DNA of 63,311 bases, taken from Aplysia californica (taxonomy: Eukaryota). Of this stretch, positions 257 to 50,405 are shown one piece after another (positions within the stretch are counted from its first letter, which is position 1; each line of letters starts with the position of its first letter). The notes beneath the pieces are model-generated. The model saw nothing but the letters and a program-made list of their open reading frames with translations, made no database searches and was not told the origin of the DNA. Both the position numbers and the translations under genes were made by a program. The stretch spans positions 3,689,961 through 3,753,271 of the forward strand of contig NW_004797274.1 of the NCBI RefSeq assembly GCF_000002075.1, given 5' to 3'.

Positions 257-786
257 TTAAATGTTTTTACGAAGTTGAAGGTAGCATTTAACCTGTACAA
301 TTACTAATACATGTACCTGTACATTCGAAATTGTTGAAGATTAGATGACTATCCATTGTTAAGGGGTAAAACAGCTGTTTTAGACAGGAAGGTGTTTTAT
401 ACAGTGTAATTTTACTGTAAAAATGTTTTTAAACACAAGGAGGGAAATTGGAGTTGACCGTTTGTTACCAGTTTGTACAGGTGATTGTCTTATATAGGTG
501 GCTGTTACAGCAGGTTTGCCTGTATTTCTATTTTGACCACAGCTGGGCTTGCTGTCTGTTTTAAACAGTTATGTCGTTTGTCAATTTATCCAAGTGCATG
601 GTTGATGGGTGCTCTGGTTTTGTGGTTTGCTCCTCCTTTCCTATCAAACAGCTTTCGTCCATATTGCTTCTCCTTTTGTGTGCTTGTTACTTTCTTGTAA
701 CATCTCGAATCTTCGGCACTTATATGACCTATTTTTGTTGCAAGTGCCATAAAACTGACTAAATCATGAAACAAAATTCGCCCATG

Positions 787-808
787 TTTCCTTGACTGCT
801 GTGTCCAG
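787..808 (+). promoter_or_regulatory. U12-type (minor spliceosome) branch point and 3' splice site
   Basis: TTTCCTTGAC at 787-796, branch A 13 nt from the AG, no polypyrimidine tract. Confidence 0.75.
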
Positions 809-890
809 TATCGGTCAAGCGGGTGTGGATTGCCACTGCAGCCACGAGTCGGACGTGTCCATCATACAGATCCTCTTCCTGATCAATGAG
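809..890 (+). CDS. STXBP5: tomosyn exon w1 (IGQAGVDCHCSHESDVSIIQILFLINE)
   Basis: ccag| acceptor, |gtgagt donor, 82 nt. Confidence 0.93.
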
Positions 891-3800
891 GTGAGTTCTT
901 TTTTTTATGGACCCTTTGTTTTGTGTGTCTCAGTCAGTTTCCCATCTGGCTTTCAACTGACCTATCTGTGTTGTAAGTGCGGTAAAACTGTTGTTTGAAA
1001 CTGAAGATTTCCCATCTACAGTCTTTCTCATCTCTCCCCCTGCAATACAAATTATCCCTACTTAACTATATATGCCCTTCTCTCCCACAGACGTTGGGTG
1101 GTTAGCGGGTGCTCTGGTGTGGTTTGCTCCTTCTTTCCTGTCAACCATTTATCGTCCTTATGTCTCCTGCTTTTTTTGTGTTTGTTACTCTCTAATAACA
1201 CCTTTGATCTTCGGCGCTTATAACACCCTATTGTGTTGCAAGTGCCTTAAAACTTTTACTAAGAGATAGACTTGAACCCACAGCTCACCCACGCAGTATA
1301 GACTTGATCTGATTCAATAGCCGGTTCACTTATCTATCTCAGAATACCACTAGACACCCCTCCCCCTCCCATCCCACCCCTGCAACAAAACGCTCTTAGT
1401 TTATTGCCCTGACATCAGGCCTTTAAAAAAAAAAAAGTACCATGTCAGTGGAATGAATGTAAGCCCACCTTGTAGGTTGACATTTTTGTGCCTGGATATA
1501 TCTGTACTTTCAGAAGGAAGTTATTTGGATAATTGAGGGCATTAATGTGGTTTTGAGGTCTTTACAATACAAATAGCTCACCGTGGCTCATTAGTTGTTC
1601 CTTGTACTTTTCTCCAGAAAGCACAAGGACTTTACTTGTAATACTGTGTGTGTTGGAGACTTTTGCTTTTAAGATGTCAGGGGGAGCTCACACAGGGCTC
1701 ATTGTCTCACTTTGCACTGACTAATGTGTTGTGCTAACACTCTCTNNNNNNNNNNNNNNNNNNNNNNNNNNNNNNNNNNNNNNNNNNNNNNNNNNNNNNN
1801 NNNNNNNNNNNNNNNNNNNNNNNNNNNNNNNNNNNNNNNNNNNNNNNNNNNNNNNNNNNNNNNNNNNNNNNNNNNAAATGGAAAAAAAATGATTTGAACT
1901 TTTTCTGTTATACTTTCTTGGTCTTAGGGAGCCCTGGTGACAGTGACCAACGATGATCACCTCCACTTGTGGAATTTCCGACAGAAACAACCTAGCATCG
2001 TCCACTCGCTCAAGTTTCAGAGAGAAAAGTAAATGACTGTCGTTTAAACTGTCTTTTTGTTGAGCTGTTTCATTTATATCTACTGAGTGTGTCTGCTATC
2101 GGTTACAGACCTCTGCATTTGCTGTTCTAAACTTGGTTTACCGAGATGTCATGCTAAGTAATTTGCATGATAGATTTTTTGTACCACTACTTAAATATTA
2201 TACTTATTACATTTTGTTTCTGTCACAAGAATAATGATTAGTTGCATTTGACAATGCTGTTCAAGAGAGAAAATTACAAATTAGGGTTATTCTTTTTTTT
2301 CTTCTTTTTTACATTGGTGGTGCATTAAAAAAAACAAGTTTCTAAGGAGAAAAATCTCATATGACCTCTGAAGTGGTGTTTGAATGCGCTTTGTTATAAT
2401 TCTTGTCACTATGAAAAGCCAAGTGTCTGTGCTGGTGGCATGTTTTGCATAATTGGAACATAATTTCCCCTGTGAGAAATGAACACACTCTTGACTAGTG
2501 GCTAAACAAACAAACAAAAAAAAAGGCCATAGTCTGCCACAGTTTTCCTCCTTTATAGATATTATGAACGCATCTTTGTTTTCAGCTTTGTTATTTTGAT
2601 GGCCTGCCTGATATAAATATTGCAGTTCAAGTCACCATGAAAAATCAAGTGTCCATGCTGGTAGTCACATATTTTGCCTAATTGGAGTATAATTTCCTCT
2701 TTGAGAAATGAATATATACTCTGCGCAAGTGGCAAGCAAAAAAATTTTTTTTTAAATGAAAGCATTTTTGTCTGCCCCAGTTTTTCTATGATTATGGCAA
2801 TTATAAATGCATCTTCATTCTCAGTTTCCTCATTTTGATGGCCTGCAACACATACATAATTTATGGTTCCTGGTTGAAATTACTCAGCTTCAGAGGAGTG
2901 TTTGCACAGAATAATATTTTAGTTTCTTCGATTTGAGAATGGTCTGTAAAGCTTGGAGCTCGTTCAGTTTCAAAGGTCTAGGCAGGATGTCAAAGCAGCA
3001 TTCGAACAAAAACTTCAACAGAAAGTCTTTCCCCTACCAATCCATCTCCTCCAGCAAATTAAAGGATAATTGTTACTATTTTCAGACAGAGAAACAGATG
3101 AAAGAAATGAAAGTATTAGAAGCTACTGCTTTCTGTACTGTATCTCTGAAAAAGACACTGTAGGCTACCTTGTTTTTCTAGACCATCGTACTTGGAANNN
3201 NNNNNNNNNNNNNNNNNNNNNNNNNNNNNNNNNNNNNNNNNNNNNNNNNNNNNNNNNNNNNNNNNNNNNNNNNNNNNNNNNNNNNNNNNNNNNNNNNNNN
3301 NNNNNNNNNNNNNNNNNNNNNNNNNNNNNNNNNNNNNNNNNNNNNNNNNNNNNNNNNNNNNNNNNNNNNNNNNNNNNNNNNNNNNNNNNNNNNNNNNNNN
3401 NNNNNNNNNNNNNNNNNNNNNNNNNNNNNNNNNNNNNNNNNNNNNNNNNNNNNNNNNNNNNNNNNNNNNNNNNNNNNNNNNNNNNNNNNNNNNNNNNNNN
3501 NNNNNNNNNNNNNNNNNNNNNNNNNNNNNNNNNNNNNNNNNNNNNNNNNNNNNNNNNNNNNNNNNNNNNNNNNNNNNNNNNNNNNNNNNNNNNNNNNNNN
3601 NNNNNNNNNNNNNNNNNNNNATTTTGATCTCTAAATCTCATTTTCTGTGTGGAAGTTAGATTTGAGGTAAACCTCATGCTGAGAAAAAAAGGGAACTAAC
3701 TTGTGAGCTTCTGTTTGTTTCAGAGTTTCCCGTTGCCATCTGCCTTTTCAAAGTAAATGGCTGTATGTGGGCACGGAGAGAGGGAATGTCCACATGGTCA

Positions 3801-6800
3801 ACATCGAGTCTTTCACCTGCTCGGGTTATGTCATCAACTGGAACAAGACTATTGAGCTGTGAGTACCTTCCTATTCGAGCAGAGAAAGAGACTGGGTGGT
3901 TGAAAGGTGCTGTTGGGAGGTTCTACTGCTTTATTGTCGTTCTGTTATTTCTGTCTGTCTATCTTAATTTTTCCCTTCAGTAAATGTGATGAGGCATGGA
4001 GACATTTGTGCCTCAATTATCTCTACTGGCGTAAGCTGACGAAACGCCTTTTTTTCTTCACAGCAGTTTCGAGAAAAAGAGTTTTTTTGGTCAGTATATC
4101 CATTTAAATTTAGAGTGATTCTGAAATCTAAATTAATTTCTAATTGATTCAAAAACTTATCACAGTTTCACTTTGATTTTTTTCACACTAGTAGGGTAAC
4201 TGATCAGGCTTTCGATTTAGATCTAGTGAATAAAACATTTTGGTACCAAAATAAAAAAGGCATTTTGTCAGCTTACGGCAGTCTAGTGAATGGATTACCG
4301 TCCTCTTAAAAAAAATGATGGTTTTCATGTGGACATGCTATTCTTTACTCAAACAAAGAATCCATAAAGAGAAGCCGAGAGTACAGATGCTGTCCACTTG
4401 AACTAGTCTTTCATCACAAGTGGTGTCTGTGTTTTTGTCTTTAATGTTGTTGGTGGGTTTCAAAATCTTCATTGTGGGTGGTTGAAGAGTGAACTAAGTA
4501 ATTAGTGCATTTTGATTGTTGCAAAATAATATGAGAACTTTCTGTTAATATTCTCCACTGATATGTGTGTTTGGGGAAATTCTCATTGAAAAGGTTGAGG
4601 ATCTGTTAAACATCACTGCATGTTCACCATTGACGATAAGCCATCAAACTAAGTAAATTTATTTTTCATGAAAGTGGAGTTAGACATGCATTTGGAATAA
4701 GGACCTTGAGTTTCATGTGTCATGCATGCTTTTTTATATTGTCAAGACATAGTGGTGTTGTGCAGACTATGAATGTTCTTTTGATCTGTGACTAAATTGA
4801 GGGGGCTTCTTTTGCGTAAAGGTTAAATTTTTTTGTAGTTGCTTGGGGTAGACATGTGTTTCAATCCCATTTGGGGAAGATAACTTCTTGAGTGTCTCTG
4901 TATTTCTCTGCTGAGATGCTGTTTTTGCCCCCTCTCCTTATGGATAAATATTTTGTAGTTGGGATGGAAAGTGGTTGCAAAATTACTTTTTTTTGGAAGT
5001 TGCAAATTCATGTTTTTTTCTTGTTCTGTCCTTTTTTTTTTTTACTTAGGTCCAGAAAAACCCATCCAGGCCCTGTAGTTCACCTGAGTGACAATCCTGT
5101 GGACTCCACAAAGGTAATGAACCGTAATGTTATTGTTCTGTTTGAAGTGCGTCTACCATAGATGGCATTTGTGACTTAATGTTGGCTCTCTGTTCTAAAT
5201 GACTCGTTAAAAGAATTTAACACATCTAAGATGGATGGCTTAAATGATTTGTCGATGGCTCCCCCATGTCTACGTTGGTTCATTTTGTTTGTTCTTGTCC
5301 TCTGTGGGACATGCGCTGTGGATGTAGCTGTGCCAGTCTTGCATAATGGCTGTCACTCACATAAACCTGTTGCCAGATGTGTTGTGTCAAAAGTGAAGCT
5401 TGTATATGTGGTCGATAGGCTCTCTACTAGTGTCTGTTTCTTCTGCTTTTTCATTTTGTAGCTTTTATAATTATAATAATATAATCCCTCTTTAATATGT
5501 GGCGTTAGTGGTTAGGTTGTTGGGCTCATAACCAAAAGATCATGGGTTCAGACCTTATCAGGGGCCTGCAAAAGATGTGGAGATGATGTTGTAATTTGAC
5601 TTTCTTGCTTATTTCATGCAGGTGGTTGGAGGGCATTATTTGCGTTTTCCTATTTTCATTCTTCCTGTCTGTCTTCTTTTTTCATGTGCAACAAATGACC
5701 GTTTTCATGTTAATGCATCTCTCTTTATTTAACCTAGCAAACAAATCTTGAGTTCATGAGTGATGATGATATCATAGACTCCTACTTCACGCTTTACCCC
5801 CTTGGGCAGTGCTACTGACTGAAGTGTCTTTAGGCCATTCCCAAAGGGGGGACACTAACATGTTCTTATGCACAGTAGAATTGTAAATGGGCCGATTCAT
5901 CAATGTCATGCTCATAACTGTGCCTGAACTGCAACAGGGAACGGCTTCTTTTTCTTTCCTAATCCTTACTATCGTCATTTTTCCTTTACTTCTTTTGTAT
6001 GTTTTTCACACTCTTGTGACCTGCTATTTCCGGGGTGCCTTGATAGTTGAAGCAGACCTTGTGCTGTTGAAGCTAAAGAGGTGAGCAGACTAAGCCTGAT
6101 TCCCTGTATGGACTTTTCTGTTGACATCCACCCCTTGGCGCTCATATGACCTTATGCAGTTGCGAGCACCATAAAAACTCTACTAAAACTAACTTAAAAC
6201 TCTACTAAAAAAAAACCAACAGAAAAACTTCTCGCTTTTCTCTTCCCCAGCTTCTGATTGGCTTTGAATCAGGCGCCATTGTCTTCTGGGACCTGCGTTC
6301 CAAGAGCCCAGATTATAGATACAACTCCCAGGAGGTCAGTGTTAATGTGTCCACCTTTGCTCAGTTTCTTAGTTACCAGAGAAGTATGGGTTTGTTGGAT
6401 GAATACAGTGGAACCTGCTCTAATGGCCACATTTATAAGATAATCACCTGTACAAACAATCACTATTCACTATTCATTTCCCCCTGCATTTTTTTTTTTT
6501 CATTACAATGGCATCGTGTGAGATGGTCACGCTTTTAAATTAGCTACTTTTCCCCTCTACAATGGGTGGCCATCTGAGACAATTTCGACTATGGTTTACA
6601 ATAAAAATATAGTGGTCTTGAAAGATTGGGTTCTTGGGATAGTTAACATTGAAATACGTTATATTTTTCTTTTACTGCTTTTACTGTGGTCTTGAAGAAT
6701 CTAGAGTTACAATAAGAAGTGAGGTGGAAGTTGAAATTTTATTGTTCTAATTTATATATGGGTACATAAAGTTGGCTTGCCAGTTGTCCCAGTTTTGAAG

Positions 6801-8241
6801 AGGTCATGTCTTATGTGACAAGTAGGAGCTAAGTGTACTTGTCTTGAATTATAGTGCCATTGCCTGATAATATAATATATTTTATATGATAACATATTAG
6901 TTGCATGATAACTTAACTCTTGTCTGATGACATTATCTGTTTTTTGAAAATGTACTTGTCGCCTGAAAATGTATATATTGTCTGATGATATGTCTATTGC
7001 CCTTGTAATATCTCTATTGCCTGATAAAGTATCAGTTGCCTGAAAACATGACTTTTGTCTGATGAAGTGTAAATTGTGGATGTTTTGCGGGTGCTCATGT
7101 AGTTTTGCTCTTTCTTTCCTTTCAAACATCTACTGTCTTTATCTCTTCTCCTTTTCTATGTATGTTGCTCTCTAGTAACACCTCTTATCTCTGGCACTTA
7201 TATGACCTATTTGTGTTGCAAGTGCTGTAAAACTCTTTTAAAAGACCCAACCTTAATGCCATTGTCTCTCTTTCACCCATGGTGATGTGTGCAGGCCCTG
7301 CGGTCTATATCGTGGCACAATGAAGGCAAACAGTTCATGTGCAGTCACTCAGACGGCAGTCTCTCCACCTGGAATGTCAAGGCCCCACAGAGGCCTGCCT
7401 CTGTCACTTCACCTCATGGTGAGTCCTGCCCTACAATTCAACATTTGCCTTTTTGTATGTCTTCTTTGAGTTGTTTACTCCGTGAAGAGATTAGTGTGGG
7501 TAGTTGGTGGGTGCTCTGGTGTGGTTTGCTCCTTCTTTTGTATAAAAAATATATTGTCCTCATCTCTCTTTCTTTTTTTTTTTTTTTTTGTTACTTTCTT
7601 GTAACACCTTTAATCTCTGGCTCTATTATGACCTAGTTGTGTTGCAAGTGCTGTAACGCTCATACTAAAACAAACAAACCTTCAGTTCCACCTTTGCCTT
7701 TCCATTTGTCTTCTTTGAGTTGTTAGCTCTGTGAAGAGGTTAATGGAGTATTGTATTCAATTGTGGGCTGTCTTATTGTCTTGAATGAATGGCATAGAAA
7801 TGTCATTATGATAATAAATTGTGTACTGTCATATAATGCGTTCATGCATTATCCTCCTTTTAAAGAGATTAGAGTATGTATATTTTTACCTTAAAAAGAA
7901 TGGCAAAGAAGTGCTGCTGAAGATTAAAATGATCACTGTCATTTTTTTACAATATAATATATGTATGGGTTTATATTTTGTAGTCAACTGCTTGCTACAA
8001 ATCTTCTTCTGTGATTTAGATTTATTTTTGTGAACAAATAATGAAGTCTGTTTCTTTGTGTTCAACATGAACCTTCGTTTGTTCATTCTGAATTACATTT
8101 TCTATTAGAGGCTGTTTAAGAATGAAAGAAATTTGCTGTTCTTTTGGTCTACAAAAAATTTATGTAACATTTGTGCTTCTCTGTGCTTGAGTGTGTGCAT
8201 GAATGCCTGCACGCATACATTTATACACAAGCATGCGCACG

Positions 8242-8276
<35 letters not shown>

Positions 8277-10210
8277 ACGCACACGCACACACACAGTGAT
8301 TGGTTGGCAGGTGCTCTGCTGTGATTTGCTCCTTCTCTGTCAAACATCTATCGTCCTTATCTCTCCTTTTTTTTTGTGTTTGTTACTCGCTTGTAACACC
8401 TCTAATCTTTGGCACTCGTATGACTTTTTTGTGTTGCATGTGCTGTTAAATGCTTNNNNNNNNNNNNNNNNNNNNNNNNNNNNNNNNNNNNNNNNNNNNN
8501 NNNNNNNNNNNNNNNNNNNNNNNNNNNNNNNNNNNNNNNNNNNNNNNNNNNNNNNNNNNNNNNNNNNNNNNNNNNNNNNNNNNNNNNNNNNNNNNNNNNN
8601 NNNNNNNNNNNNNNNNNNNNAACTGTTCACATATTTTGTATTTGATTGATGTATTTTGTTTGTTTATGTGTTATTTTTTTATTCTTTTATTTCAGCCAAA
8701 ATTGGTCCAGATGGGAAACCAGACCTGTGCAAACCCATTGCTAAAGTGGAGTGGAGATCTACTCGAGCTGGGTATGTGTCAATTAGCTGTTGATCTTTGA
8801 GGAACAAGTTTTATATCTCACCCCATCTTTAGCTGTGATTCTGTGAACGTTTATTATGTTTGTCCGAAATAAGAAATCTATGTTGTAGATGATGAAAGCT
8901 TCTAAAGATTCGTCGACTGCTCAGTGTAAGACTTTGTCATATGTCACTTTTTAACCTTATCTGTACGCCCTGGGGTCATTTTGTACTCCAGGGGTTGTAT
9001 TCTTCACATTTTAGAATACTTCTAGTACGAAGATTTCTTTAAAGCTTTCAATATTTCTCAAAAAATCATTTTGTCAGACTGCTTTGCGAAGCGTACAGAT
9101 CGGATTAACGAGTAAATTTCCACTTTGGAAACAGAGTTCCCCATGTCGTATGGATACGATAGTAAAACACGACATACGGATAGGGTTAAAATGATTTCTG
9201 GTGGAGTCTAACACTAACCAATCAAGGTGTAGATGAGAGTAGTGAACAGTTTGAAGTGCAGCTTTAGGATAAGAAAATGTCTTTAATTGCTAGAATAGGA
9301 TACTATATTTATATATTATACCTAGTATAGATTACTTTTACCCTACAGTACAATTTGCATAGGGCACTAGTATACCTAGAATAGTGTACTTTATATCAGT
9401 ATTGTTATTGTAGAATACGATACTATAATATACCTGTGTATCTGTCAGTGGTACGCCTGGAACAGAGCACTCTCTTCCTGTGCCTCTGTATTATACCTAG
9501 AATGGGGTACTTTTTACCAGGGATTGGAGTATACCTAGAATAGGGTATTTTGTTTCTGTTTGTCTGTGGTAGGGTACTTTGTATCTCTGTATCTGTAGCA
9601 TGCCAAGAATAGGGTCCTTCATACCTGTGTGTCTGTAGTAAACCTGCTCAAGAGGTTTGAACGTTTTATTTTAGTTTGTCACCCCCACTGCATTGTTCAG
9701 ATTATAACAGCGAGTGGTTGGAAGGTGCCCCTGGTAGGTTGGCGAGTGCTCTGGTGTGGTTTGCTCCATCATTCTATCAAACAACTATCGTCTTTATCTC
9801 TCCTCCGTCTTTATTATGTTTGTTACTCTCTTGTAACACCTCTAATCTTCAATGACCTTATTGTGTTGCAGGTGCTGTAAAACTCTTCCTTAAAAAACTC
9901 TTCTCCACTCAGATGCTTTTTAGTAACCAGGTGTTTTTATCCTGTCTACCAAACAAATTAAGAGCACAGGGAAAATGCCATTTTTCACAATTTTTCGTTT
10001 TTGCCCGTTTTTATCCTTTGAGTTGTTTTGTTTGTCTATCAATATCATGTTTATCAAAATGACTGTATTCATCTACTTATGACATAATGCACAACAGTCC
10101 CACTTAAAAAGGATGGCTGTAGTCATATAAATAAAGGCACATTTGCTTGTTTAACACAATCCTCCGCCATTGAATTCTGCAACGAGAATGTGTGTGTGTT
10201 GTGGAGCTGT

Positions 10211-10281
<71 letters not shown>

Positions 10282-13200
10282 GTGCGCGTGCATGTACGTG
10301 TACATGTNNNNNNNNNNNNNNNNNNNNNNNNNNNNNNNNNNNNNNNNNNNNNNNNNNNNNNNNNNNNNNNNNNNNNNNNNNNNNNNNNNNNNNNNNNNNN
10401 NNNNNNNNNNNNNNNNNNNNNNNNNNNNNNNNNNNNTGCGCATGCTTGTGTATATGCACACGTGCGTTGTTAAATGGTCTCACAGTTTGCTTTTTCTGTC
10501 CTTTGATTCGTCAGTTAAGTTGAGTGAAAATTATGCATTGCATTTGCTTAGCGCTTAGGGCCTTCTTGGGATTTGACGCTATGTAAATTCTCATCATCAT
10601 TATTATTACTATTATATTATATATGTAAATGATTTTGTGGACCCCCTCAGGGAGGCCATGGTGGTGTTCTCCGGTGGAATGTCCTATGACCGAGCGGGCC
10701 GCACGCCGAGCATTACTGTGATGACGGGCAAAAGCACCACGGTGCTGGAGATGGAACACAACGTGGTGGACTTTGTCACCCTCTGTGATACTCCCTGGGT
10801 TAATGGTCAGTTTGTTTGTTTGTATAGATATTTTCGGTAACAGTCGCATACTGCTGAAGTGCGAAATTAGGTTTGATACACCCTGGGTTAATGGTCAGTT
10901 TGTTTGTTTTTGTAGATATTTTTGGTAACAGTCACATACTGCTGAAGTCCGAAATTAGGTTTACTTTTAAATTTTATATTGAAGTGATCATTTGGAAACA
11001 TGCTTACATCATGTCTTAATATAGTGCAAGTGTAAGTCGAGAAGATGATGGAATACAACATCAGAACAAAACATGTACATCTGTTGTTTGGCATGCTTAA
11101 TACAAGTTCATTGTTTTTCTTAAAAGTTTTAGTTTGGGACATTTTAAGTTTTGCAACTTTTACCATTGATATGTTTAGGACACTGTCGACACTGTTTGGT
11201 CTTGTAAGCGTCACATTTTCATTTTTTTCCCTTCCTAGCATCATGTTATGAATTATTGTCACACTTCATGGTATGCCCTGGGTTACGGGTCAGTTTTTAA
11301 GTTAGACCCCGCGGGGCAGTGCCACTGACTGTAGTGTCTTTAGGCCATTCCCAAAGGGGGGACATTTCTCGTTCAAGCATAGTAGAATTGTAAATGGGCT
11401 GATTCATGTCACGCTCATAACTGTGCCTGATCTACAACAGGGAACTGCTGCTTTTTCTTTCCTGATCCTTACTATTGTCATTTTCCCCTACTTGTTTTGT
11501 ATGTTTGTCACTCTTTTGTGACCTGCTATTTTGGGGTGCCTTGATAGTCGAAGCACACCGTGTGCTGTTGAAGCTAGAGAGGTGAGCAGTCTAAGTCTGA
11601 TTCCCTGTAAAGAGTTCTCTGTTGACATCCACCCCTTGGCGCTTACATGACCTTATTCAGTTGCGAGCGCCGTAAAACCCTCTACTATTAAAAAAAAAGT
11701 TTTAAAGTTAGTTTGGGTATATGACTTACGGCCACAGTTCATGGTCAGTTTATTAGTGTATATGTTTTATTGCTTGGGTCAATGGCCAGTTTATTGGTTT
11801 ACAAGTGTACATGTTTAATTTCCTTGGTTAACGGTCTATTTAGTTTGTCGGTATGCATATATTATTATGTTTAGAGGCCTGGGATTAATAGTCATCATAG
11901 TTTGTTGGATTAGTTTACATAAATGTTTTAAGGCCTGGATAAATGTCAGTTTGTTAGTTTGGGGTATATTTTTTATGGCTTAGGTTATCAGTCAGTTTGT
12001 AAGTTTGTTAATGAAGTCCCATGTGTTTTTGTTAGAAACAGAGAACAAAATGCTGACCTCACATACTTGGATGATATTGCTCTCTTACTCATTTTAGATA
12101 ATGTCAATGAAACTAAAAAGTCAGCATGAACTAGAAATATTAGAAAGTAGAGATGGGTTATTCTTATGTGTCTTCTCCCATCATTTAAATTAGAAGATTC
12201 ATTTTCTTTTGCTTGTGTGAAAAACTTTTTACTAATTAGTTACCCGGTTAGAGCATAACACTATTGATGTACATGTCCAACCTGCTCTTCTCTTAAGCCA
12301 GTGCTTTCTGTTTGTTTCAGATTTCCAAGATCCTTATGCCATTGTTGTACTGCTGCAAAATGACTTAGTTGTTATAGACCTCACAACACCGGGGTAAGAT
12401 CTCACTACTGTTCTCAACTACTCTTTTCCACACCTGGGCATGCTGTTAGTTCTGTTGATATCATGCTGGGCTACGGTACTCATGACTCTGGATTGAATAC
12501 CCAATGGGGCCTTCTTGAACTTAGGTTATTTGAGGGAGTTTTCAAGGTCCAACCGCTTTACTTAGTCTTATGGGAGATACTTGCTTAATTTGGAGGTCCC
12601 TCCTCGTACATAACCTTACAGTGCTGAAAAGGGTGTTAACCCAAGCAATATTTTTGTCAATGATGGACAGTGCCTCTACCTTGCTGTCTGCATGCCAGAA
12701 GGCTTTGTAGGTAGTGGAGACTGCTCAATCAGACGAACAAACTGTTTGGAATTTGGGGGAACAGTAGGGGGAATTGTAAGGCTGGCGGAGCTAAACGGAC
12801 GGTTTGACCTTGGGACTTTAGAGTGATGGGCACTGTATTCTGGCAACAGTACGGCATTGTTTTAAGGGTTCCACTGTTAATAGTCTCTACTTCTCTTCTT
12901 CCCTTCTATAGTTTCTGCGAGTCTGTCTTACTCTTCCTCCTGCATTTTATGACCATTATTTACTAATTGTGCTTCTATTTACATAAACTTGACAATACAC
13001 AGCGCTTGCTCCTTTGTGATAGTCTAGTAAAGAAAGCTGAGATGCACTTAGGCATTAACTTGTTTCTCGCTGAGGTTGGGAAAAAAAGTTCATATTTGTC
13101 TCATGTTTTGCTTTTCTTTTGCAACTGATTTTCAGACTCCTGTGTGTTTTAATGGTTTGTCTATTTGTAGTTGCATATTGAAGACATGAGACTGATTCCT

Positions 13201-15851
13201 GCATGAGGAAATTATTTCATAGAGTATCCCCATCCGTTGGCTGTCATACTGGGTTAGCTTTGACAGACATGGTTGACATATTCTGCTTCCTAAATGATCT
13301 TAAATGTATTGATAAGATGTGACATTTACCATTATTGTTTTCAGCTATCCGTGCTTTGAGAATCCTTATCCGATGGACCTGCATGAGTCCCCAGTGACCG
13401 CCTGCCAGTATTATGCTAACTGCCCCATGGACATCATCCCTGCACTCTACTCAACCGGCAAAAATCAGAAGAAGACTGGGTTCAGTGAAAAGGTGAGGGC
13501 AAATAACCCTCTCATAACACGACATATTGTAGCTTTTGTTCACACCATATATCGTCGGTCGCCTGATAAAACCGTGAATTCCACACATTTTCGAAAATCG
13601 TTTTTTTGCATATTTTGATAGTGCTCGGTGAGATACATGTCCCTGTAAAACAATTTTTCAATTATCTCAACTCAAACGTGTAATCTGACGTAATAAGAAA
13701 ATCGTGAATAAACACCGTGCCCCAAAAGTCGCCTGATGAAACCGTGAATCCCACACCTGTGTGGAATTCACGATCTCATCCGTTGGTTTATGACTTGTGA
13801 GGCTGACCGTTGGCGCCGTGAACGCCTCTTTAAACCATTGAAATATGGACGACTGCGTTGAGCAAACATAATGGTCGGTCAGTATTCATGGTTTCCAGGC
13901 CAAAGATTAAAATTTATGATGTTGACTGCATGCGTTTTGCGGGAAAACCTCTCTGTCACATAATTAAAATGCCTATTTCCTAGATGCAGGACTGGTACGT
14001 TTCACAACGACTGTGAAATTCGAATGTGTGATGTGTGTGCCTTTCTAGTAGTGGTTATACAATTTTGATCTTGCTCATTTGCAAAAAAAATTTTTAAAAA
14101 TTAAATAACAAATTCGAAAATTGACGTTGTCAAGTATAAATTACAAGTATATTTCCGTGTGGTATCACAACCCAAACTTGTATGACATTGAAAGCTCTTT
14201 GATTTGACATCAGAGTTCCCTAACGAGAAAAGGAATTTTGAGAAGCCGAGCAATGTGAACCATTTTGGGCATCAGAGAAAGCTACAGAAAATACAGCACG
14301 GAAATAGTAGAAGAACCAGACTTCAATGAAGAAAAAGTATCATTCAAAGTACACGGTGTGTTGGAACAGATCAACGGTGCTTTTTTAACCTACGAGAGAG
14401 TAAAAGAGGATGAGAGAGAGAGAGAGGGAGAGGGAGAGGGAGAGGGAGAGGTGGGGGGGGGGGGGGGAAGCAGGCAGCAATTTAAGCAATACAAATCAAG
14501 AGATGGGACAATTAAAAAAAACTAATGAACTGAACCCCAGATGTGATTGCTCAACCAAATCAATGGACTACTCACTATTAAAAAACAACGCCAGAACAAC
14601 TATCTGAACAACTATCTCTGTCTTTGTTTGGACTTTGACACGGGGAGACAGAAAGTCCTAGGTAAACGGTAGTCTCAACTCGAAAGAGTACAATTTAAGG
14701 GAAGGCGATACACCAAGCTGAAAGATGCACACTTGGGTTTTTTGTCTGAAAAAGAATGACCAGATCAAAGTTTGCAGGATATTGATATCTATGACCGGGC
14801 TCACCCATTGTAAACTGCTCTAGAAGTGCCCATGCCAGTTTCATCATCGTCTGGCTCACCCGGAACAGACAAACACTTTCCACTATTCCCTACCCTGGAC
14901 TAACTTCTTCACATTTTTCAAATGTTTTTCCAGTTTTCAGTTCATCATTTTCTGCGACTTTTCTACAGGTCCCACATGGTCTTCCCTTGATCTTTTAAGC
15001 TGTTGACTCCAAATTAAAACTTTTTTGTTATGTAGCTGCCTGATTTCCAAATGGTCTGCTCAGTCCAATCCATCTCCACTGCTTTCTTCTGCGCGAAAAT
15101 TTTCTGGTCATAACTCCCTCATTGGTGACTCTGTCCATCTGATCCTGAGAAACTTCCTCAGGCACTTGTTGATGACAACCTGGATCTTCCAGAACTTTGT
15201 AAAGGGTGCTTTAGAAGAGCGCAGCCCAGCTGCACCACCAATCAATCCACAAGCCAAGGAGTTTCTGCTCACATCTGTGGACATGTTTCTGAAGGTTCCC
15301 TCTCACTCTTGCCCGCAAATCTCTGAAAAACTGTATCTTGATCCCTGATTCTGTAATCTGTCGGAGCTTGAAACAGCCTGCACTGGTCAGGGACAATCTG
15401 CCTTTTATGTCAGGCTACTCAAATATGTGCAAGATGAAAAGAATATGTCGATCTATGAGTAAAAAAAAATCAATGTGAATTGTGCGTGAGTTTTGAGTCT
15501 TGACAGCATCAGCCAGACTAAGTGGGAATCTCACATGTCAGAAAAGAACATGACAAAGAAAGGGCACACAATGGTTAAAACCTTTGCTCTTAGGCAAGAA
15601 GACCTTGTGATGATTTGCCTGAATCTTCAGGGTGTACTTTTGTCATTGTCTATTAATTCATCCAGCTCTTGTTACAGAAACATGAACATAATCTTCAATG
15701 CAACCTTGTATGGTGCCATCTTTTACTTATGAACAAAAGGCACAAGGTGGTTTGATTGCAAACGAATTCACAAGTTGTTCGATGGACTTTTTTTAACGTG
15801 CACAAATGCATAGAAGGTTATAACAATATATTATTATACAGCTACGGGTGC

Positions 15852-15897
<46 letters not shown>

Positions 15898-24726: not shown

Positions 24727-24766
<40 letters not shown>

Positions 24767-36700: not shown

Positions 36701-38187
36701 CAGATCTGTTTATCATTTCCCTTTGTCATTTTTATTTTAGTGACTCCTGGAATGACGACTGCACTATCTGTGGGATATATCTAGATGTTTTTGCTTTTCT
36801 TTTCCACTTCTTGACATTTTTAGTGAATTTTATTTGCATTCTTGATTTATCTGCATACTTTTATGTTCCATGTGCTATCTGTATGTTGTTGCTGTAGTGC
36901 TATATGTGGATTTGCAACATTTTTGTTAATGGAACACTTCATTAGTTACGGTTGTACTTACTTGTTGGATCAGTTGCCTGTATTCTTAAAAAAATAATTG
37001 AATCTTATATTTTTGTATGCATTAGTAAAGAATGGAAGTGTCACTTTGTGTGAGACATTCTGACCTTCAAGTTTTTAGAGTAGTGCTGTGTCTGGATGCT
37101 CTGAAAAAGTCCAAATCTGAACAAAATACACACGTCTTTAAGTGTAAAGTGTGTTGGAGGAATTTTCAGTACACTTAGGCTTAGAAGGGCTAAGGAAAAG
37201 GAAGTCAAATCTCAGTTTTAAACCTGTCATTTGAGCTCAAAAGGGGTAACACGATGAATCAATTCTCAGTATTAAAACGGAACACTTAGAAGGGTAACTA
37301 TGAAGTTAATTCTCAATTCTCAGCCCCACCACTTTTATTTGGAAGTGTTAAAAGGATGAAGTCAGTCCTTAATGCGTAAGCTACTGTTCTGCAAACACCC
37401 TGCATTTTCATCATTATGATACTAAATCAATGAAATGAACATGAGTACAGATAAAATATGAACATTCATGGGATATAGTGTATGATCTCTGTCATGGGTA
37501 CAGCTAGAATATAGACATATCATGGGTACCATATAGGCGCCAAGTACATCTAGATAAGGCGTATTGAATGTTTGGGTTTTTTCCCACAAGCAGCAATGGA
37601 TTCCAGTTGATATGAATAATGATAATATGGTGCATTTATACTGAATATATCATTACTAGAAAGAAGGTTGTATTTGCTGAACAATATATTATGTGAGTAT
37701 TTGAGAGGTAAGCTCTCGTTACTGACCCACAATGCTAGGACTTGACCATACCAATGTACGAAGCATTTTTATTAATCTTTCTTGGTAATGAAGTTTTCAG
37801 TTTTGTTTGATTATGAAAGCAGAGATAAGACTTCCCCTTTATAGGCTTTGATTTGTTGATTTTGGAAGTAGTCAGTGAGTAGGAAATGTGTCCACTGTGA
37901 TGATGATGAATGTCTCTGGTTGGGCAGTGGTCACTCGTGCTGAATGTTGACCGTATATCTGGCAGACAAAGTGGACGGCTCCTCGTTCTCCCGGTCTCGG
38001 AGCTCCAGCATGTCAAGTCTAGACAACGTGACCAAAGAAGCCATCCAGTGTCTGGTGTTTGCTGACTCCTACACTCGCAAGTCAGGTCTGTACAGAGTGT
38101 GGTTGGAGGAGGACTGCTGGTAGTTCCTACTTCTTCTCTTCATCTCTGATATTTTTGTGTGCCGGTCTGTCATTCTTTTGTGTCTTG

Positions 38188-38228
<41 letters not shown>

Positions 38229-39186
38229 TACTCTGTTGCAGCACTAAATGACCATTATTGTGTTAATGTGCCTCTCTTTATCCAAACGAACAAATTAACA
38301 AACAGACAAGCAAACAAACAAACAAACAAATGCCAATGTGCTGCTCTTTCCTTAAACAAATCAAATCAAATGTAAGCTCTTCAAAGTGTTCTACTCTTTT
38401 GTTATAACTTACCTGGTTTTTATTTGTGTGTGTTTCTGCCCTTTTATGAGTTTGTGTATATATTTATATTGACTGCTCAGCGTAAGACCCTATCTACGTT
38501 ACTTTATATTTTTTCGCGAAATGCGGAGTGTTACTCTAAGTAGTCAATATTTATGTGCACGTTTTGTACGTATGTATTTCTGTATGATCTCCGTAGTGCT
38601 TTGGTAAATTGCACATTAAGGTCTTTGCTGTTACACTCTAAAGACATGAGTTCAGTTCCTGTTTTGGACGTCTATTGATGTCTCTCTGCTAGAATAGTGT
38701 CCCACTCAGCCAAGATTGGCCCAGACAGGTGAGGTCAAAGCAGCTCACCTCATAAATGGTCTAATTTGTGTTCATAGAGGTGTAAAATATTAACAATAAT
38801 AAGAGTGTGTCAACAGTGATCTGAGCAAGGAGGTGGAGAATGCCATTGTTAGGTCCTTCTTCACTCACCTTCTGTCACGTCTATTTATCTGTCTTGCCTT
38901 TTTCTATGCTGGAATGACCTTCATTGTTCCCAGTGCTTATCTATGAAAAGAAACCAAGAAAACTATCCAAAATAACCAAAGTAAGAAAACTATCCAAAAT
39001 AACCAAAGTACCTTGAGTAAGTGGGGTTTTATTTGTATCTGACATGTATGAGAGCGAAGATAGAGCTTCGTGTTTTTTTCTCTTAAGTTTTAAAAGTATT
39101 TTTAAAAAATTGATATGTGTTTGAATTCCAGCAATGATTTTCAGTAACGAGAGCTTACATCACAACTTAATTTGTCTTTGTTGTGT

Positions 39187-39242
<56 letters not shown>

Positions 39243-48200: not shown

Positions 48201-50405
48201 GTCTGCTCCACCTCCCCCTACCCCTCCATTCCCCCCACTACCAACGGAGGATGACATCTCCGACCCCCCTCCCCGGCCTGACCCGGGAAGGGCGGAGTCT
48301 GTCACTCCTCCAAATCCCCCACTAGACCGCCGTCCAATCCAGGACGGCAATCTAGAAAACACTCTGCCTCCCCCGCAAGGAGGAGTCAGAGTGTTTCTTC
48401 GAAGCTGGGGCCACTGAGCTCCAAAATAAAAACTAAAAAGTCATAATGGTGGTCCTGCAATGGAATGCCGGCGGAATCCGACCTTCCATTGCAGAATTGC
48501 AACACTTACAGGCCACACTGTGCCCACGTGTGGCCTGCATACAAGAAACAAAATTCGCCCCGGCTTCACTCATAGACTTAAGAGGATTTACTGCGTATCA
48601 TCACATTCACACGGAGAACCAGATTGCTTCCGGTGGTACCAGCAGAATTTTGAATTTTATGAAGGCCATCGGCCTTAATGGCAAATTATAAAGTGAAATT
48701 ATACTATTTAAAATTTTTAATGTTACTTATAAGAGTTTGTTTTAAATTGTAAATATATTTACACCAAATTTTAGTATTTTAACATTTTAAAGTCTAATTT
48801 TCGACCAACCGTGCAGTGAACTGTTGCGAATGCTATCAACTTGTGTTTCGCGTGCTCATATGACCTTATGCAGTTGCGAGCGCCGTAAAACCCTGTACTA
48901 AACAAACAACTCTCTAGTGGTTCCTCTAATTTTCAGCTCTTGCATGACCTTATTGTGTTGCATATACTGTAAAACTCATACTGTGGGTGGTTGGCAGGTG
49001 CTCTGATTTGGTTTACTTCTTCTTTCCAATCAAACATCTATCGTCTTTATCTGGCTCCTTTTTTGTGTTTGTTACTCTCTTGTAACACCTCTAATCTTTG
49101 GCACTTATATGACCTAATTGTGTTGCAAGTGCCGTAAAACACTTACTAAAACAAAAACAAAAACCTTAATAAAATGAAAACTAAACAATTTGTGTCTTGT
49201 TTTTTTTCATGCCAGTTGGAGAAGCCAGTGGCAAGGCTTCCAAGGGTCTGGCCAAACACATCCCAGGCTCTGGGAATCTCCAGCAGCTGCAGTACCAGGC
49301 CGCCGCCTCTGGCAACGAGTTCACCCGCACCAGAATGGTCAGTTCGAGAGCTGCTAATTCTATAATACAATTGCTTAGTGTAAGACTTTATCCCATGCTC
49401 AAAAGTGACATATGACGGTCTTACACTGAGCAGGTGAATAGCTTTTTGTCTCTGCTTGCAAAATGGTCCAACTCAGATTTGTGTCCAGCATTTTATTTTG
49501 TTTGGTAAAATCAAAACAAAAATACGCTGGCAGTCACAGAGGAAACATGCAAGACAAGTTTTACCATTTTTAGGTGATAAATAGTCTAGTTTAACATTTT
49601 TCATTTTTCTGAACAGTAGCAGAAATGAGTGTGCCATTTTGCTAGCGCAGTGACGATTTGTAGCTTATGGAAGGGGGATGATTTAAAAAAAAAATGTTTT
49701 TGCTCTGTATCCTAGATATGTGTACCGAAAAGTTAGGTGTATTTCAGTCCTCTGGTCTCTCTCTATATTTGTGTGAGCGGTTGGAGGACAGCTCTTGTAG
49801 GTCCTAATTCATTTATTTCTTTGTAATTTCTGTCTTGTCTATCATCTTTAAACAGTAAAATGCAATTATTGTGCTTACGTGTATCTCTTTTGTCAAGGTC
49901 TAACTGATATCTTTTATTTGTCTTTTTATGAAATTAATGCGGGTGTCTGGAAGGTGCCCTGGTAGGTCCTTTTTCCTTTCTTTCCCTTCTTTGTCTCTGT
50001 CAATCTTGCTCTTCTGTGCACTTAATGACCATTAAATTATTGCATAATTGTGCTATTTTACTCAAACAAACAAAAAATGAATAAACGTTACTGCAATGTT
50101 CGAAATGCCATTGCATCAGTAGTATACCAACAGAATGTTAACTAAACTCTCAGCATATATCAATATATATTTTTTCAAAATGACACATGGTAGAGTCTTA
50201 CCCTTAGTAGTCGATGCGTATTGCACCATGATCATACTATCAGCATCCTCCCATTTTTTTTCTCCAGCTGTTGTCGGAGAGGGGTGAGAAGCTGGGGGAT
50301 CTGGACGATAGGACGGCACAAATGATGAACTCGGCTGAGCAGTTTGCCCAGGCGGCGCATGGTCTGGTCAACAAGTACAAGGACAAGAAGTGGTACCAGT
50401 TCTGA
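809..50405 (+). CDS. STXBP5: Tomosyn (syntaxin-binding protein 5 family), 27 coding exons in window, 5'-partial
   Basis: Spliced translation gives IGQAGVDCHCSHES...LPFQSKWLYVGTERGN...ENPYPMDLHESPVT...GHADGSLKFWDAS...SRSRSSS...ERGEKLGDLDDRT...KYKDKKWYQF*, matching tomosyn as I recall it. All junctions GT-AG; exon lengths sum to 4777 nt (1 + 1592 codons including stop). Confidence 0.97.
1928..2028 (+). CDS. STXBP5: tomosyn exon w2 (GALVTVTNDDHLHLWNFRQKQPSIVHSLKFQRE)
   Basis: ttag| ... |gtaaat, 101 nt. Confidence 0.93.
3724..3858 (+). CDS. STXBP5: tomosyn exon w3 (VSRCHLPFQSKWLYVGTERGNVHMVNIESFTCSGYVINWNKTIE)
   Basis: ttcag| ... |gtgagt, 135 nt. Confidence 0.95.
5050..5113 (+). CDS. STXBP5: tomosyn exon w4 (SRKTHPGPVVHLSDNPVDSTK)
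   Basis: ttag| ... |gtaatg, 64 nt. Confidence 0.93.
5498..5567 (+). pseudogene. tRNA-Met-like remnant or SINE head
   Basis: GTGGCGTTAGTGGTTAGG..GGGCTCATAACC..GGGTTCAGACC; stems imperfect. Confidence 0.45.
5797..6225 (+). mobile_element. Short retroposon family B (~400 bp), copy 1
   Basis: 5' CCCC..GGGCAGTGCTACTGACTG; 3' LINE tail GGCGCTCATATGACCTTATGCAGTTGCGAGC..TAAAA; TSD ACTTC(A/T)CGCTTT. Confidence 0.85.
6251..6334 (+). CDS. STXBP5: tomosyn exon w5 (LLIGFESGAIVFWDLRSKSPDYRYNSQE)
   Basis: cccag| ... |gtcagt, 84 nt. Confidence 0.93.
7295..7418 (+). CDS. STXBP5: tomosyn exon w6 (ALRSISWHNEGKQFMCSHSDGSLSTWNVKAPQRPASVTSPH)
   Basis: gcag| ... |gtgagt, 124 nt. Confidence 0.93.
8696..8771 (+). 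CDS. STXBP5: tomosyn exon w7 (KIGPDGKPDLCKPIAKVEWRSTRA)
   Basis: ttcag| ... |gtatgt, 76 nt. Confidence 0.9.
8955..9185. mobile_element. piggyBac-like MITE, copy 2 (inverted relative to copy 1)
   Basis: TTAA flanks; internal sequence is the reverse complement of 17-256. Confidence 0.85.
9288..9640 (+). repeat. Degenerate minisatellite (TATACCTAGAATAGGGTACT core)
   Basis: About 8 decayed units. Confidence 0.65.
10651..10805 (+). CDS. STXBP5: tomosyn exon w8 (EAMVVFSGGMSYDRAGRTPSITVMTGKSTTVLEMEHNVVDFVTLCDTPWVN)
   Basis: tcag| ... |gtcagt, 155 nt; Lgl-type SGG motif. Confidence 0.95.
10787..12005 (+). repeat. Tandem array derived from the exon w8 3' end and donor
   Basis: 88-bp near-perfect duplication (10787-10874 / 10875-10962), then decayed CCTGGGTTAATGGTCAGTTT-like units at ~11277, 11772, 11822, 11877, 11933, 11978. 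Confidence 0.8.
11306..11698 (+). mobile_element. Family B, copy 2
   Basis: Full length, poly(A), TSD GTTTT(T/A)AAGTTAG. Confidence 0.85.
12321..12393 (+). CDS. STXBP5: tomosyn exon w9 (FQDPYAIVVLLQNDLVVIDLTTP)
   Basis: ttcag| ... |gtaaga, 73 nt. Confidence 0.93.
13345..13492 (+). CDS. STXBP5: tomosyn exon w10 (YPCFENPYPMDLHESPVTACQYYANCPMDIIPALYSTGKNQKKTGFSEK)
   Basis: ttcag| ... |gtgagg, 148 nt. Confidence 0.95.
13553..16743 (-). mobile_element. 3.2-kb TIR DNA transposon, Sola1-like, degenerate
   Basis: ATAT flanks; ~35-bp TIR CGT(C/A)GGTCGCCTGAT(A/G)AAA(C/T)CGTGAATTCCACAC; subterminal copies near 13725-13780 and 16495-16565; broken minus-strand coding remnants (e.g. EQFTMGEPGH). The superfamily call is inferred from the AWWT TSD. 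Confidence 0.7.
16960..17415 (+). repeat. ~41-bp minisatellite just upstream of exon w11
   Basis: TGCCAATGTTTGAGTGAGTGTCATTACTGAGTGA(A/G)GAG, about 11 units. Confidence 0.9.
17447..17514 (+). CDS. STXBP5: tomosyn exon w11 (PWPVKGGSWGSSTTSYPEIIIT)
   Basis: ttcag| ... |gtaaga, 68 nt. Confidence 0.93.
17539..17783 (-). mobile_element. tRNA-derived SINE (family C)
   Basis: Minus strand: A-box TGGTATAGCATTTAGG, GTC anticodon-like loop, B-box GAGTTCAATTCCC; tail ATCTAAATTGTAGTCGATG..GTGTAAAA shared with the 61180 copy. Confidence 0.75.
18202..18242 (+). CDS. STXBP5: tomosyn exon w12 (HADGSLKFWDASS)
   Basis: ttcag| ... |gtaagt, 41 nt. Confidence 0.93.
18560..19140 (+). repeat. Low-complexity TGT/TTC-rich decayed tandem repeat
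   Basis: Recurrent TCATGTTCTGTTCC units. Confidence 0.6.
19765..19964 (+). CDS. STXBP5: tomosyn exon w13 (NLQFLYKLKTAKVFEKP...FKFSKQEVSIDFV)
   Basis: ccag| ... |gtaagt, 200 nt. Confidence 0.93.
19945..20545 (+). repeat. Tandem array derived from the exon w13 3' end and donor
   Basis: GGTTTCCATAGACTTTGT(T/A)GTAAGTACTG-like units at ~19946, 20063, 20131, 20232, 20287, 20531. Confidence 0.8.
20809..20952 (+). CDS. STXBP5: tomosyn exon w14 (TLEFSIVYEVYEEMDSPE...ASDNAK)
   Basis: cccag| ... |gtaggt, 144 nt. Confidence 0.9.
21796..21944 (+). CDS. STXBP5: tomosyn exon w15 (SETVTSVKAKTGARRWGPGFLPDLVCILCWVDGEPPGNITVMSLNSSYG)
   Basis: acag| ... |gtaagt, 149 nt. Confidence 0.92.
22436..22859 (+). mobile_element. 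5'-truncated copy of the same LINE family
   Basis: C-terminal CVGCDTDFTIRHILTEC zinc motif ... PSRILNFIKAIGLYGEL*; 3'UTR aligns with 48692-48900; (TAC)n tail. Confidence 0.88.
22871..23274 (+). mobile_element. Family B, copy 3
   Basis: Full length, 11-bp TSD CTCTTCCCAGT (22860-22870, 23275-23285). Confidence 0.88.
23311..24079 (-). mobile_element. Internally deleted hAT element retaining a BED zinc finger
   Basis: 8-bp TSD CTCTTCAC (23303-23310, 24080-24087); TIR TAGGGCTGGG/CCCAGCCCTA; minus ORF 23389-23586 AWDYF..CNIC..STSSLLKHLKGKH. Confidence 0.92.
24397..24485 (+). CDS. STXBP5: tomosyn exon w16 (LAFGNESGLAIVDYLQKTCLLNLGTPDLY)
   Basis: gcag| ... |gtatgc, 89 nt. Confidence 0.93.
25451..25560 (+). 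CDS. STXBP5: tomosyn exon w17 (SMDPYQRAPRSPRSKKYAGEGLVQTSEDCKSPTVDQ)
   Basis: ccag| ... |gtgggt, 110 nt; internal alternative donor G|gtgagg after 25507. Confidence 0.85.
27996..29721 (+). CDS. STXBP5: tomosyn exon w18: giant (1726 nt) Pro/Ser-rich hypervariable-loop exon
   Basis: Inside the 675-aa ORF 27912-29939; phase-0 acceptor ttcag| and phase-1 donor G|gtaggt exactly bridge the phase of w17 (0) and w19 (1); GC-rich and stop-free. Alternative in-frame acceptor at 28023. Confidence 0.78.
37966..38085 (+). CDS. STXBP5: tomosyn exon w19 (KVDGSSFSRSRSSSMSSLDNVTKEAIQCLVFADSYTRKS)
   Basis: gcag| ... |gtctgt, 120 nt; SRSRSSS motif. Confidence 0.92.
39271..39387 (+). CDS. STXBP5: tomosyn exon w20 (TETSPCLWVGTSLGSVIVIVLVLQPDQRLSQPVIVSPS)
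   Basis: acag| ... |gtgagt, 117 nt. Confidence 0.94.
40590..40772 (+). CDS. STXBP5: tomosyn exon w21 (SLYRMKGVIVCMSFLDFKGGLIPALSEQWREVKD...); two in-frame donors (40736 or 40772)
   Basis: acag| acceptor; donors A|gtgagt and AG|gtgtct, both phase 1. Confidence 0.87.
41654..41851 (+). CDS. STXBP5: tomosyn exon w22 (QMSVSNSKPKISPTSSTEMNNDRQFAIICSEKQARAISLPSQ...IVGMR)
   Basis: acag| ... |gtatgt, 198 nt. Confidence 0.93.
41898..42407. mobile_element. MITE with TAGCTCGTCCAAC terminal inverted repeats
   Basis: 13-bp perfect TIR; TSD ambiguous (TA if the TIR starts at G). Confidence 0.7.
42896..43113 (+). mobile_element. Family B, copy 4 (3'-truncated)
   Basis: Matches the first ~215 nt of the other copies. 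Confidence 0.8.
43340..43448 (+). CDS. STXBP5: tomosyn exon w23 (SVCLMCYVANGHILAFSLPSLKPLFDADFLPLPDY)
   Basis: cccag| ... |gtaagg, 109 nt. Confidence 0.94.
43470..43990 (-). mobile_element. Decayed LINE reverse-transcriptase fragment (antisense)
   Basis: Minus ORF 43718-43978 resembles the pre-RT region (..QILNYL...W..KGAF....VIIFPK..); weak. Confidence 0.4.
44185..44280 (+). CDS. STXBP5: tomosyn exon w24 (VARTFCFSNNGHAMFLCSPTEIQKITYSADI)
   Basis: tcag| ... |gtgagt, 96 nt. Confidence 0.94.
44757..44881 (+). CDS. STXBP5: tomosyn exon w25 (ENLNEMLGELFLPRETPEAPKQGLFKTLFGGGVSTLDREEL)
   Basis: acag| ... |gtgagt, 125 nt. Confidence 0.95.
44924..45657. mobile_element. TTAA-flanked non-autonomous DNA transposon (piggyBac-like, second family)
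   Basis: TTAA|CTCACTGACTAC-GGT ... ACCAGTAGTCAGTGAG|TTAA. Confidence 0.8.
46351..48908 (+). mobile_element. I/Nimb-group LINE: 5'UTR, disrupted ORF1 (CCHC knuckles), ORF2 internally deleted, 3'UTR
   Basis: 10-bp TSD ACTCTCTAGT (46341-46350, 48909-48918); ORF1 ~46906-48417 with PYVPNPLRCSQCQKFGH...CPRCGKTGH; ORF2 48446-48691 has APE start LQWNAGG...CIQETK fused to the C-terminus SRILNFMKAIGL. Confidence 0.9.
49216..49337 (+). CDS. STXBP5: tomosyn exon w26 (GEASGKASKGLAKHIPGSGNLQQLQYQAAASGNEFTRTRM)
   Basis: ccag| ... |gtcagt, 122 nt. Confidence 0.93.
50268..50405 (+). CDS. STXBP5: tomosyn last coding exon, R-SNARE-like motif (LLSERGEKLGDLDDRTAQMMNSAEQFAQAAHGLVNKYKDKKWYQF*)
   Basis: ccag| acceptor; VAMP-like heptads with zero-layer R; tomosyn C-terminus KKWYQF; TGA at 50403-50405. 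Confidence 0.96.
   Translation: MLSERGEKLGDLDDRTAQMMNSAEQFAQAAHGLVNKYKDKKWYQF

Follow-up and report, generated by a model that had tools for sequence, protein, structure and literature searches.

Do mobile elements settle at random within introns, or does the edge of an exon matter to where they end up? This question is raised by a 63,311-nucleotide stretch of the Aplysia californica genome (contig NW_004797274.1; hereafter the window), in which an initial annotation had noted that transposons crowd the flanks of the exons. The gene concerned lies on the + strand at 809..50404, and by the resemblance of its translation it is probably a tomosyn/STXBP5-like gene. After boundary corrections its 27 coding exons (w1–w27) join into a stop-free reading frame of 1579 residues, and w13–w18 as well as w23–w27 are reproduced by RNA-like contigs; none of the sequencing runs listed is recorded as RNA.

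Three families of short elements, A, B and D, with lengths of about 170, 395 and 135 nt respectively, were modelled by profiles and complemented by a repeat map. Every element that had been listed near a splice site was recovered in its place by these means. On the acceptor side, all on the + strand, we find an A copy at 594..776 whose tail ends about 30–48 nt before w1 (end 760, 48 nt before 809), a B copy at 5796..6225 (55 nt before w5, with its 12-nt target-site duplication (TSD) inside the w5 pyrimidine tract), A copies at 7076..7244 (50 nt before w6) and 21594..21766 (29 nt before w15), three tandem A copies at 19139..19699, the last ending 65 nt before w13, a 3'-truncated B with a D copy at 42896..43311 (D end 28 nt before w23), and an A copy at 48983..49160 whose body ends 63 nt before w26 and whose A-rich tail reaches closer. 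On the donor side, again on the + strand, are an A tail fragment at 946..993 (21.9 bits, 55 nt after w1), D copies at 3895..3986 (36 nt after w3) and 38099..38291 (beginning 13 nt after w19), and A copies at 7496..7671 (77 nt after w6) and 39466..39596 (78 nt after w20). An A and a D copy at 44317..44680 (+) lie 36 nt after the w24 donor and 76 nt before the w25 acceptor, respectively; the latter was missing from the initial list, as was a strandless repeat at 6401..6584, 66 nt after the w5 donor.

The remaining donor-side elements are of other kinds: a TIR-bounded DNA element at 13546..16750 (53 nt after w10), a MITE with TIRs at 41893..42408 (41 nt after w22) and a TTAA-flanked TIR element at 44921..45660 (39 nt after w25), none of them assigned a strand, and a tRNA-like SINE, judged by eye, on the - strand at 17570..17779 (55 nt after w11). 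Further copies on the + strand are A at 1095..1264 (mid-intron), 8296..8455 and 9732..9895, B with TSDs at 11306..11697 and 22873..23269, and pairs of D copies at 21172..21574 and, in the last intron, at 49776..50071. In total 21 of the 26 introns contain an element.

To measure the crowding, 38 blocks, including seven elements placed by hand, were shuffled 20,000 times within the 26 introns, outside which the A copy before the w1 acceptor falls. The crowding had been called non-random, and this is borne out for the tomosyn gene: 18 of the 38 blocks are no farther than 80 nt from a splice site, where 8.6 would be expected (p = 1e-4). The comparison proposed by the initial annotation, a within-intron shuffle at 100 nt, gives 18 blocks against 10.6 in the window (p = 0.002). 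Donor sides hold 11 sense and non-A/B/D elements where 4.2 are expected. A further regularity, not mentioned by the initial annotation, is that all 40 A, B and D copies in the window stand on the gene strand.

What these families have in common is their 3' end. A, B, D and a long element at 46349..48900 (+) all close with a hairpin whose 7-bp stem is paired in 83% of 77 cells, with two-sided changes at four of the seven pairs in 11 hand-picked window copies. The hairpin is followed by a short-repeat tail and then by target duplications of 8–18 nt (57 sites of A, B and the long element); TSD scores reach at least 9 in 38 of 166 full-length copies, and the TSD support for D is weaker. The long element is an internally deleted LINE with a zinc-knuckle ORF1, the start of an APE-containing ORF2 and the hairpin tail, and it is nested inside an A copy (46246-46350 / 48909-48982). 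Intact copies elsewhere in the genome measure 5.95 kb and encode an ORF1 of 507 and an ORF2 of 1226 residues, the latter with APE endonuclease (PF14529/PF03372), reverse transcriptase (PF00078) and RNase H (PF00075) domains. The CCHC zinc knuckle of ORF1 (PF00098) is found at E = 2.6e-4 in the window copy and weakly, at E = 0.07, in a full-length copy, and the Pfam search revealed no chromatin-reader domain in either frame. We assign the element to the I-group and, going by its domain layout and by published descriptions, regard it as putatively Nimb-like; among the 120 homologues listed for it there is no named Nimb reference. Because the best 40 matches to its 3' end are 99–100% identical, the LINE has been recently active, and a 5'-truncated, very young copy with 99–100% identity to an intact one lies in gene-sense orientation at 22434..22858 (+) in the window.

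The common tail suggests that A, B and D are mobilised in trans by the LINE proteins. B and the LINE both begin with ACCCC and then a G run, a likeness in the style of LP-SINE heads that was judged by eye. A classical tRNA-derived SINE was considered and rejected: A, B and D gave no tRNA (ARAGORN) or Rfam match and contain internal T runs, and decayed heads could escape such detection. A fixed target was likewise rejected. R1, R2 and Tx1-type non-LTR elements are sequence-specific and insert into a fixed target sequence; the 57 target sites collected here are diverse, with a weak YY|A signal. Side observations on the copies are tandem repeats of 1.4–1.6 kb of the 3' part in LINE copies L158, L164 and L301-L302, and unusually long flanking duplications of about 67 nt around the A copy at 7496..7671 (7430-7496 / 7679-7745) and of about 51 nt around a B copy in a dynein stretch (C804).

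Do the strand bias and the crowding hold outside the tomosyn gene? We analysed 20 dynein heavy-chain genes, over 40 kb each, together with 19 myosin genes over 20–30 kb, fixing both intron ends by spliced alignment. This yielded 432 dynein and 128 myosin introns (one myosin stretch gave none), that is, 560 introns pooled from 38 genes besides tomosyn, at alignable junctions and with junctions supported by a single reference retained. Copies next to one another were counted as a single block, introns in which N made up more than 30% were left out, and blocks were shuffled within their introns 5,000 times (p floor 2e-4); several cut-offs between 30 and 150 nt were tried. With tomosyn, the sampling thus comprises 39 genes of three kinds in one reference assembly.

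The strand bias is general in this sample. Sense and antisense A/B/D blocks number 101:24 in the dyneins, 42:7 in the myosins and 28:0 in the window, or 143:31 outside the window; sense copies are the majority in 34 of 40 gene stretches and antisense copies in four, with two ties. The ratios were the same with models trained on antisense or on genome-wide copies, and reversed sequence gave 0 profile hits; model composition or training bias was thereby rejected as the cause. The density of A/B/D is 0.39 per kb in introns and 0.13 per kb flanking kinase genes, which are mostly single-exon.

The position of the blocks depends on which end of the element faces the exon. In the dyneins, at 75 nt, 32 of 96 sense blocks lie before acceptors against 10.5 expected, and 11 lie after donors against 11.7; for antisense blocks it is the donor side that is in excess (8 of 23 against 2.0, p = 6e-4), and 3 lie before acceptors against 1.8. 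The myosins repeat the acceptor excess at the same distance (11 of 38 sense blocks against 3.7, p = 4e-4), and their antisense blocks after donors (1 of 6 against 0.4) are not significant. Pooled, the tail-facing positions hold 43 of 134 sense blocks before acceptors (14.2 expected) and 9 of 29 antisense blocks after donors (2.4 expected) at 75 nt, and both excesses persist at 50, 100 and 150 nt. The head-facing positions are at chance, with 15 sense blocks after donors against 15.8 and 3 antisense blocks before acceptors against 2.1. Therefore, enrichment occurs only where the tail of the element faces the exon.

This rule is not driven by a few genes: the tail-facing blocks come from 26 (sense) and 9 (antisense) different genes, and the strand-by-side Fisher test gives p = 0.002. 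The enrichment is alike on both strands (3.0x and 3.75x), and the counts fit two independent factors, one of about 4.6x for gene-sense and one of about 3x for tail-toward-exon that is equal on both strands. With the tails trimmed, 30 of 133 sense blocks (7.7 expected) and 6 of 29 antisense blocks (0.9 expected) still have their end no more than 30 nt from the exon. By family, the acceptor peak in the dyneins is clear for A (25 against 6.5), marginal for B (5 against 2.2) and absent for D (2 against 1.8). The donor-side crowding of the window replicates weakly in the 560 introns, where sense A/B/D blocks are at chance and other repeats number 44 against 33.4 (p = 0.024).

Other repeats in the same introns served as controls. 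tRNA-like SINEs and MITEs show no strand bias, and of the 15 de novo repeat families that have at least five members, 14 lack a strong strand lean, the exception being 5:0. The 295 blocks of other repeats are slightly enriched near splice sites (82 against 64.8, 1.27x, p = 0.005), which is not significant in the myosins alone; the 146 blocks of the 15 de novo families number 40 against 30.9 at 75 nt and 47 against 41.5 at 100 nt. This weak general excess perhaps reflects retention or undetected relatives. With other repeats included in the null, the A/B/D enrichment drops to about 2.6x (42 against 16.4 and 9 against 3.4). As a side observation, the 5:0 family (de novo family 14, in dynein introns) appears RTE-like by eye, and three of its five copies lie within 75 nt of acceptors; the copies are few.

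The pattern is thus real, replicated and family-specific. The crowding of transposons at exons is a true excess, and this genome has no depletion zone, the opposite of the usual depletion near exons, as the initial annotation had said; as a statement about transposons in general it does not stand, since other repeats reach 1.27x and one LINE-dependent group carries the signal. Its proposal that introns grow from their ends is not borne out: 95 of 163 A/B/D blocks, and 213 of the 295 other blocks, are farther than 75 nt from any splice site. Insertion beside exon edges is still the best reading.

We then asked whether the age of the copies bears on the pattern. The strand ratio of family A is flat across age thirds (33:6, 33:7 and 35:5), and its tail-facing counts, youngest third first, are 7, 10 and 11 of 28 each against about 2.5–2.6 expected; the young A copies are still 88–96% identical to the family majority. 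In family D the strand bias rises with age (14:6, 19:1, 19:1). The LINE offers younger insertions, with 30 loci whose copies are 99–100% identical; four of these were excluded for their very short flanks and one for a skew of zero. The T-rich strand is the element strand in 19 of the 25 loci with non-zero skew (p = 0.015), and of 12 informative loci, 9 have A/B/D neighbours in the same orientation (p = 0.15).

A Pfam scan that covered 50 of 104 candidate exon frames near LINE and A loci gives small samples pointing the same way. All five LINE loci outside the window with a host-Pfam exon in clear gene context are sense (L282, L284, L295, L159, L162), and L284 lies 71 nt upstream of a kinase acceptor. 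A sixth locus, L168, matches MADF and has the same orientation, but may be transposon-derived. Well-conserved A copies with Pfam support are sense in five cases (L248, L251, L253, L259, L267) and antisense in two (L265, L008), and L008, 24 nt downstream of a donor, points its tail at the exon. Near-identical young LINE copies thus already lean sense, in a small sample. Young LINEs are also found nested in other mobile elements, where six run by eye in the direction of the host element (L160, L173, L175, L293, L277, L298) and one (L172) in the opposite direction; in L298 the host is an LTR-type reading frame, and host splicing cannot select in nested copies.

The bias most likely arises from LINE insertion machinery that favours transcribed genes and exon edges, a reading we hold with about even confidence. 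LINE proteins would prime reverse transcription at a nick in the template strand of the gene, which would yield sense copies, and the machinery would prefer DNA 10–60 nt away from the boundary of an exon that lies on the side of the primer. This DNA could plausibly be linker next to an exonic nucleosome, or else a place where polymerase and splicing factors linger. A CTAAAA-type tail at an acceptor may replace the displaced branch point, so that the insertion would be tolerated. In a more specific version, which we put forward tentatively and consider rather unlikely as a whole, the LINE would be tethered to the transcribing, splicing polymerase, and template-strand priming, exon-edge insertion and a branch-point-like tail that repairs the disturbed acceptor would together make a splice-site-guided safe harbour.

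The role of the tail can be examined in part. Many tails occupy the branch region or abut the pyrimidine tract 10–25 nt short of the AG, and splicing of the exons persists. A relaxed branch-like motif, selected to match the tail, occurs in 74% of 34 tail-abutted introns and in 37% of 425 free ones. The strict branch-point consensus YTRAY is equally frequent in both (35% and 35%), so branch-point rescue is plausible but unproven; and because the tail-facing enrichment is similar on both strands, rescue alone is insufficient. As side observations, the target duplication includes or abuts the acceptor AG in A copies of myosin stretch C986 (L242) and dynein stretch C469, and the acceptor region has therefore been duplicated there.

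The evidence for targeting at insertion is weakened by the fact that all counted copies are insertions of the reference genome, already filtered by selection, and by the antisense excess after donors resting on 9 blocks; nor was a GC step seen between the flanks of mid-intron copies (n = 22). Insertion could instead have been roughly random and the pattern made later, a serious possibility that we judge somewhat short of probable: antisense copies, through purine-rich, polyA-like sequence or an antisense promoter, would have been purged except just behind donors, sense copies in the pyrimidine tract kept or favoured for a tail that supplies a branch point, and exon-side copies spared by mid-intron deletions. 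The rise of the D strand bias with age and the slight climb of the A tail-facing counts agree with this, as do the more exon-like character of antisense A and D (polyA hexamers 0.21 against 0.10), the general 1.27x of other repeats, which would be a retention effect, and the tails that abut pyrimidine tracts of spliced exons together with the relaxed motif. In humans, too, the sense excess of SINEs near exons is ascribed to selection in the accessible parts of PMC3088655 and PMC2533698, but there it sits in a depletion zone and is not an excess over the mid-intron rate. The equal frequency of the strict motif, cryptic donors that are equal or stronger in sense than in antisense A and B, the sense lean of the A/C-rich LINE down to near-identical young copies, and the lack of strand bias in the tRNA-like SINEs and MITEs of the same introns all speak against selection as the source, although selection and retention probably contribute as well. 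An antisense purge driven by cryptic splice sites was rejected separately: flipping copies in silico caused no large rise in splice signals.

A sequence preference of the endonuclease for a pyrimidine-rich, G-poor strand, aided by tail microhomology, might also read the asymmetric composition of intron ends. Its direction is right on both sides, C exceeding G in the vicinity of acceptors and G exceeding C around donors, and the 57 TSD starts carry a weak YY|A, G-poor signal; however, a target-motif model built on these sites, which captures short motifs only, predicts 49–54% sense and 1.06–1.18x where about 82% and about 3x are observed, and we regard this explanation as very unlikely. That the pattern is an artefact or chance, whether a post-hoc reading of one gene, T-rich models on T-rich sense introns or local copying, seems scarcely credible to us: the window list was indeed post hoc, several cut-offs were tried and the earliest models learned from sense copies in the window, but the result replicates in two independent gene sets, reversed sequence stays silent and antisense-trained models return the same ratios. 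Local hopping within a gene was rejected, the nearest relative lying in the same gene in 6 of 119 cases against 6.6 expected.

How does insertion near exon edges by LINE machinery compare with known systems? TRE5-A of Dictyostelium is a non-LTR element targeted 44–54 bp upstream of tRNA genes (PMC5911963, in its accessible part), and the present APE-RT system may likewise favour a certain distance and orientation relative to part of a host gene. An orientation rule and a peak are present, but 95 of 163 blocks fall beyond 75 nt. According to the same text, TRE5 reaches Pol III genes via contact of ORF1 with TFIIIB and within a narrow window, whereas here the landmark would be the edge of a Pol II exon, the peak is spread over about 5–75 nt with about one third of copies inside, and no candidate tether was found in Pfam. 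Human L1 shares a transcription-linked strand bias proposed to arise during insertion; as far as the available text of PMC5717806 goes, it is attributed to transcription-coupled repair and acts against sense, unlike the bias of about 5:1 for sense seen here. De novo insertions of the Drosophila I-element, like our LINE a member of the I-group, favour neither strand and occur in introns at random levels in the excerpts available of PMC10018349, which counts against targeting. Antisense or opposite-strand biases of LINE and LTR elements appear in other animals in the accessible portions of PMC2911107 and PMC9341512.

Human SINEs and Alus are depleted within 100–150 bp of exons and are rarer at acceptors than at donors, as the available part of PMC3088655 describes. 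The elements studied here resemble Alus in that sense exceeds antisense near exons, most strongly upstream of acceptors (PMC3088655 and PMC2533698, same parts). Unlike them, A, B and D are enriched rather than depleted, most of all at acceptors; their sense bias is intron-wide, and antisense copies are enriched after donors. Comparable by description are mollusc SINEs with Nimb-type tails and LINE-derived (LP) heads (PMC4758252, PMC11481361, PMC11203168, each in its accessible part), the LP head being about 70 nt homologous to a LINE 5' UTR. These too, known from snails and bivalves, are short, TSD-flanked elements that borrow tail or head from I-group/Nimb LINEs, and some accumulate in introns (PMC4758252, PMC11481361); the accessible parts of the three papers contain no analysis of strand or exon distance. 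Our search of the literature, which covered few subscription journals, found no report of splice-site-adjacent, sense-biased retroposons in molluscs.

By the mammalian standard retroelements are depleted near exons and LINEs are antisense-biased, and the active LINE system described here is the reverse on both counts, following a simple geometric rule that neighbouring repeats do not. If the pattern is set at insertion, it would be a new target choice for a non-LTR element, linking retrotransposition to co-transcriptional splicing or exon chromatin; if it is set by selection, it would show the tails of mobile elements put to use at acceptors across a genome. A sense copy lies within 75 nt in 47 of the 560 sampled introns, and if the tethering is true the 3' ends of about 8% of introns would have been rewritten. 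The intact, near-identical LINE copies make the question testable.

Finally, the host gene shows some features of its own. An internal exon of 1726 nt (27996-29721) adds about 575 Pro/Ser/Lys-rich residues to tomosyn; it is covered by contigs from each of four runs, one of which connects it with w15–w17. The longest intron (29722-37965, 8.2 kb) is without an A, B or D copy, in a gene that otherwise carries nearly one per kb, and it may harbour alternative exons or an alternative 3' end. Tandem repetition extends the 3' ends of w8, w13 and w15, donor sites and all, into the intron that follows (10786-10962, 19946-20333 and 21913-22207), and these repeats have produced decoy donors.
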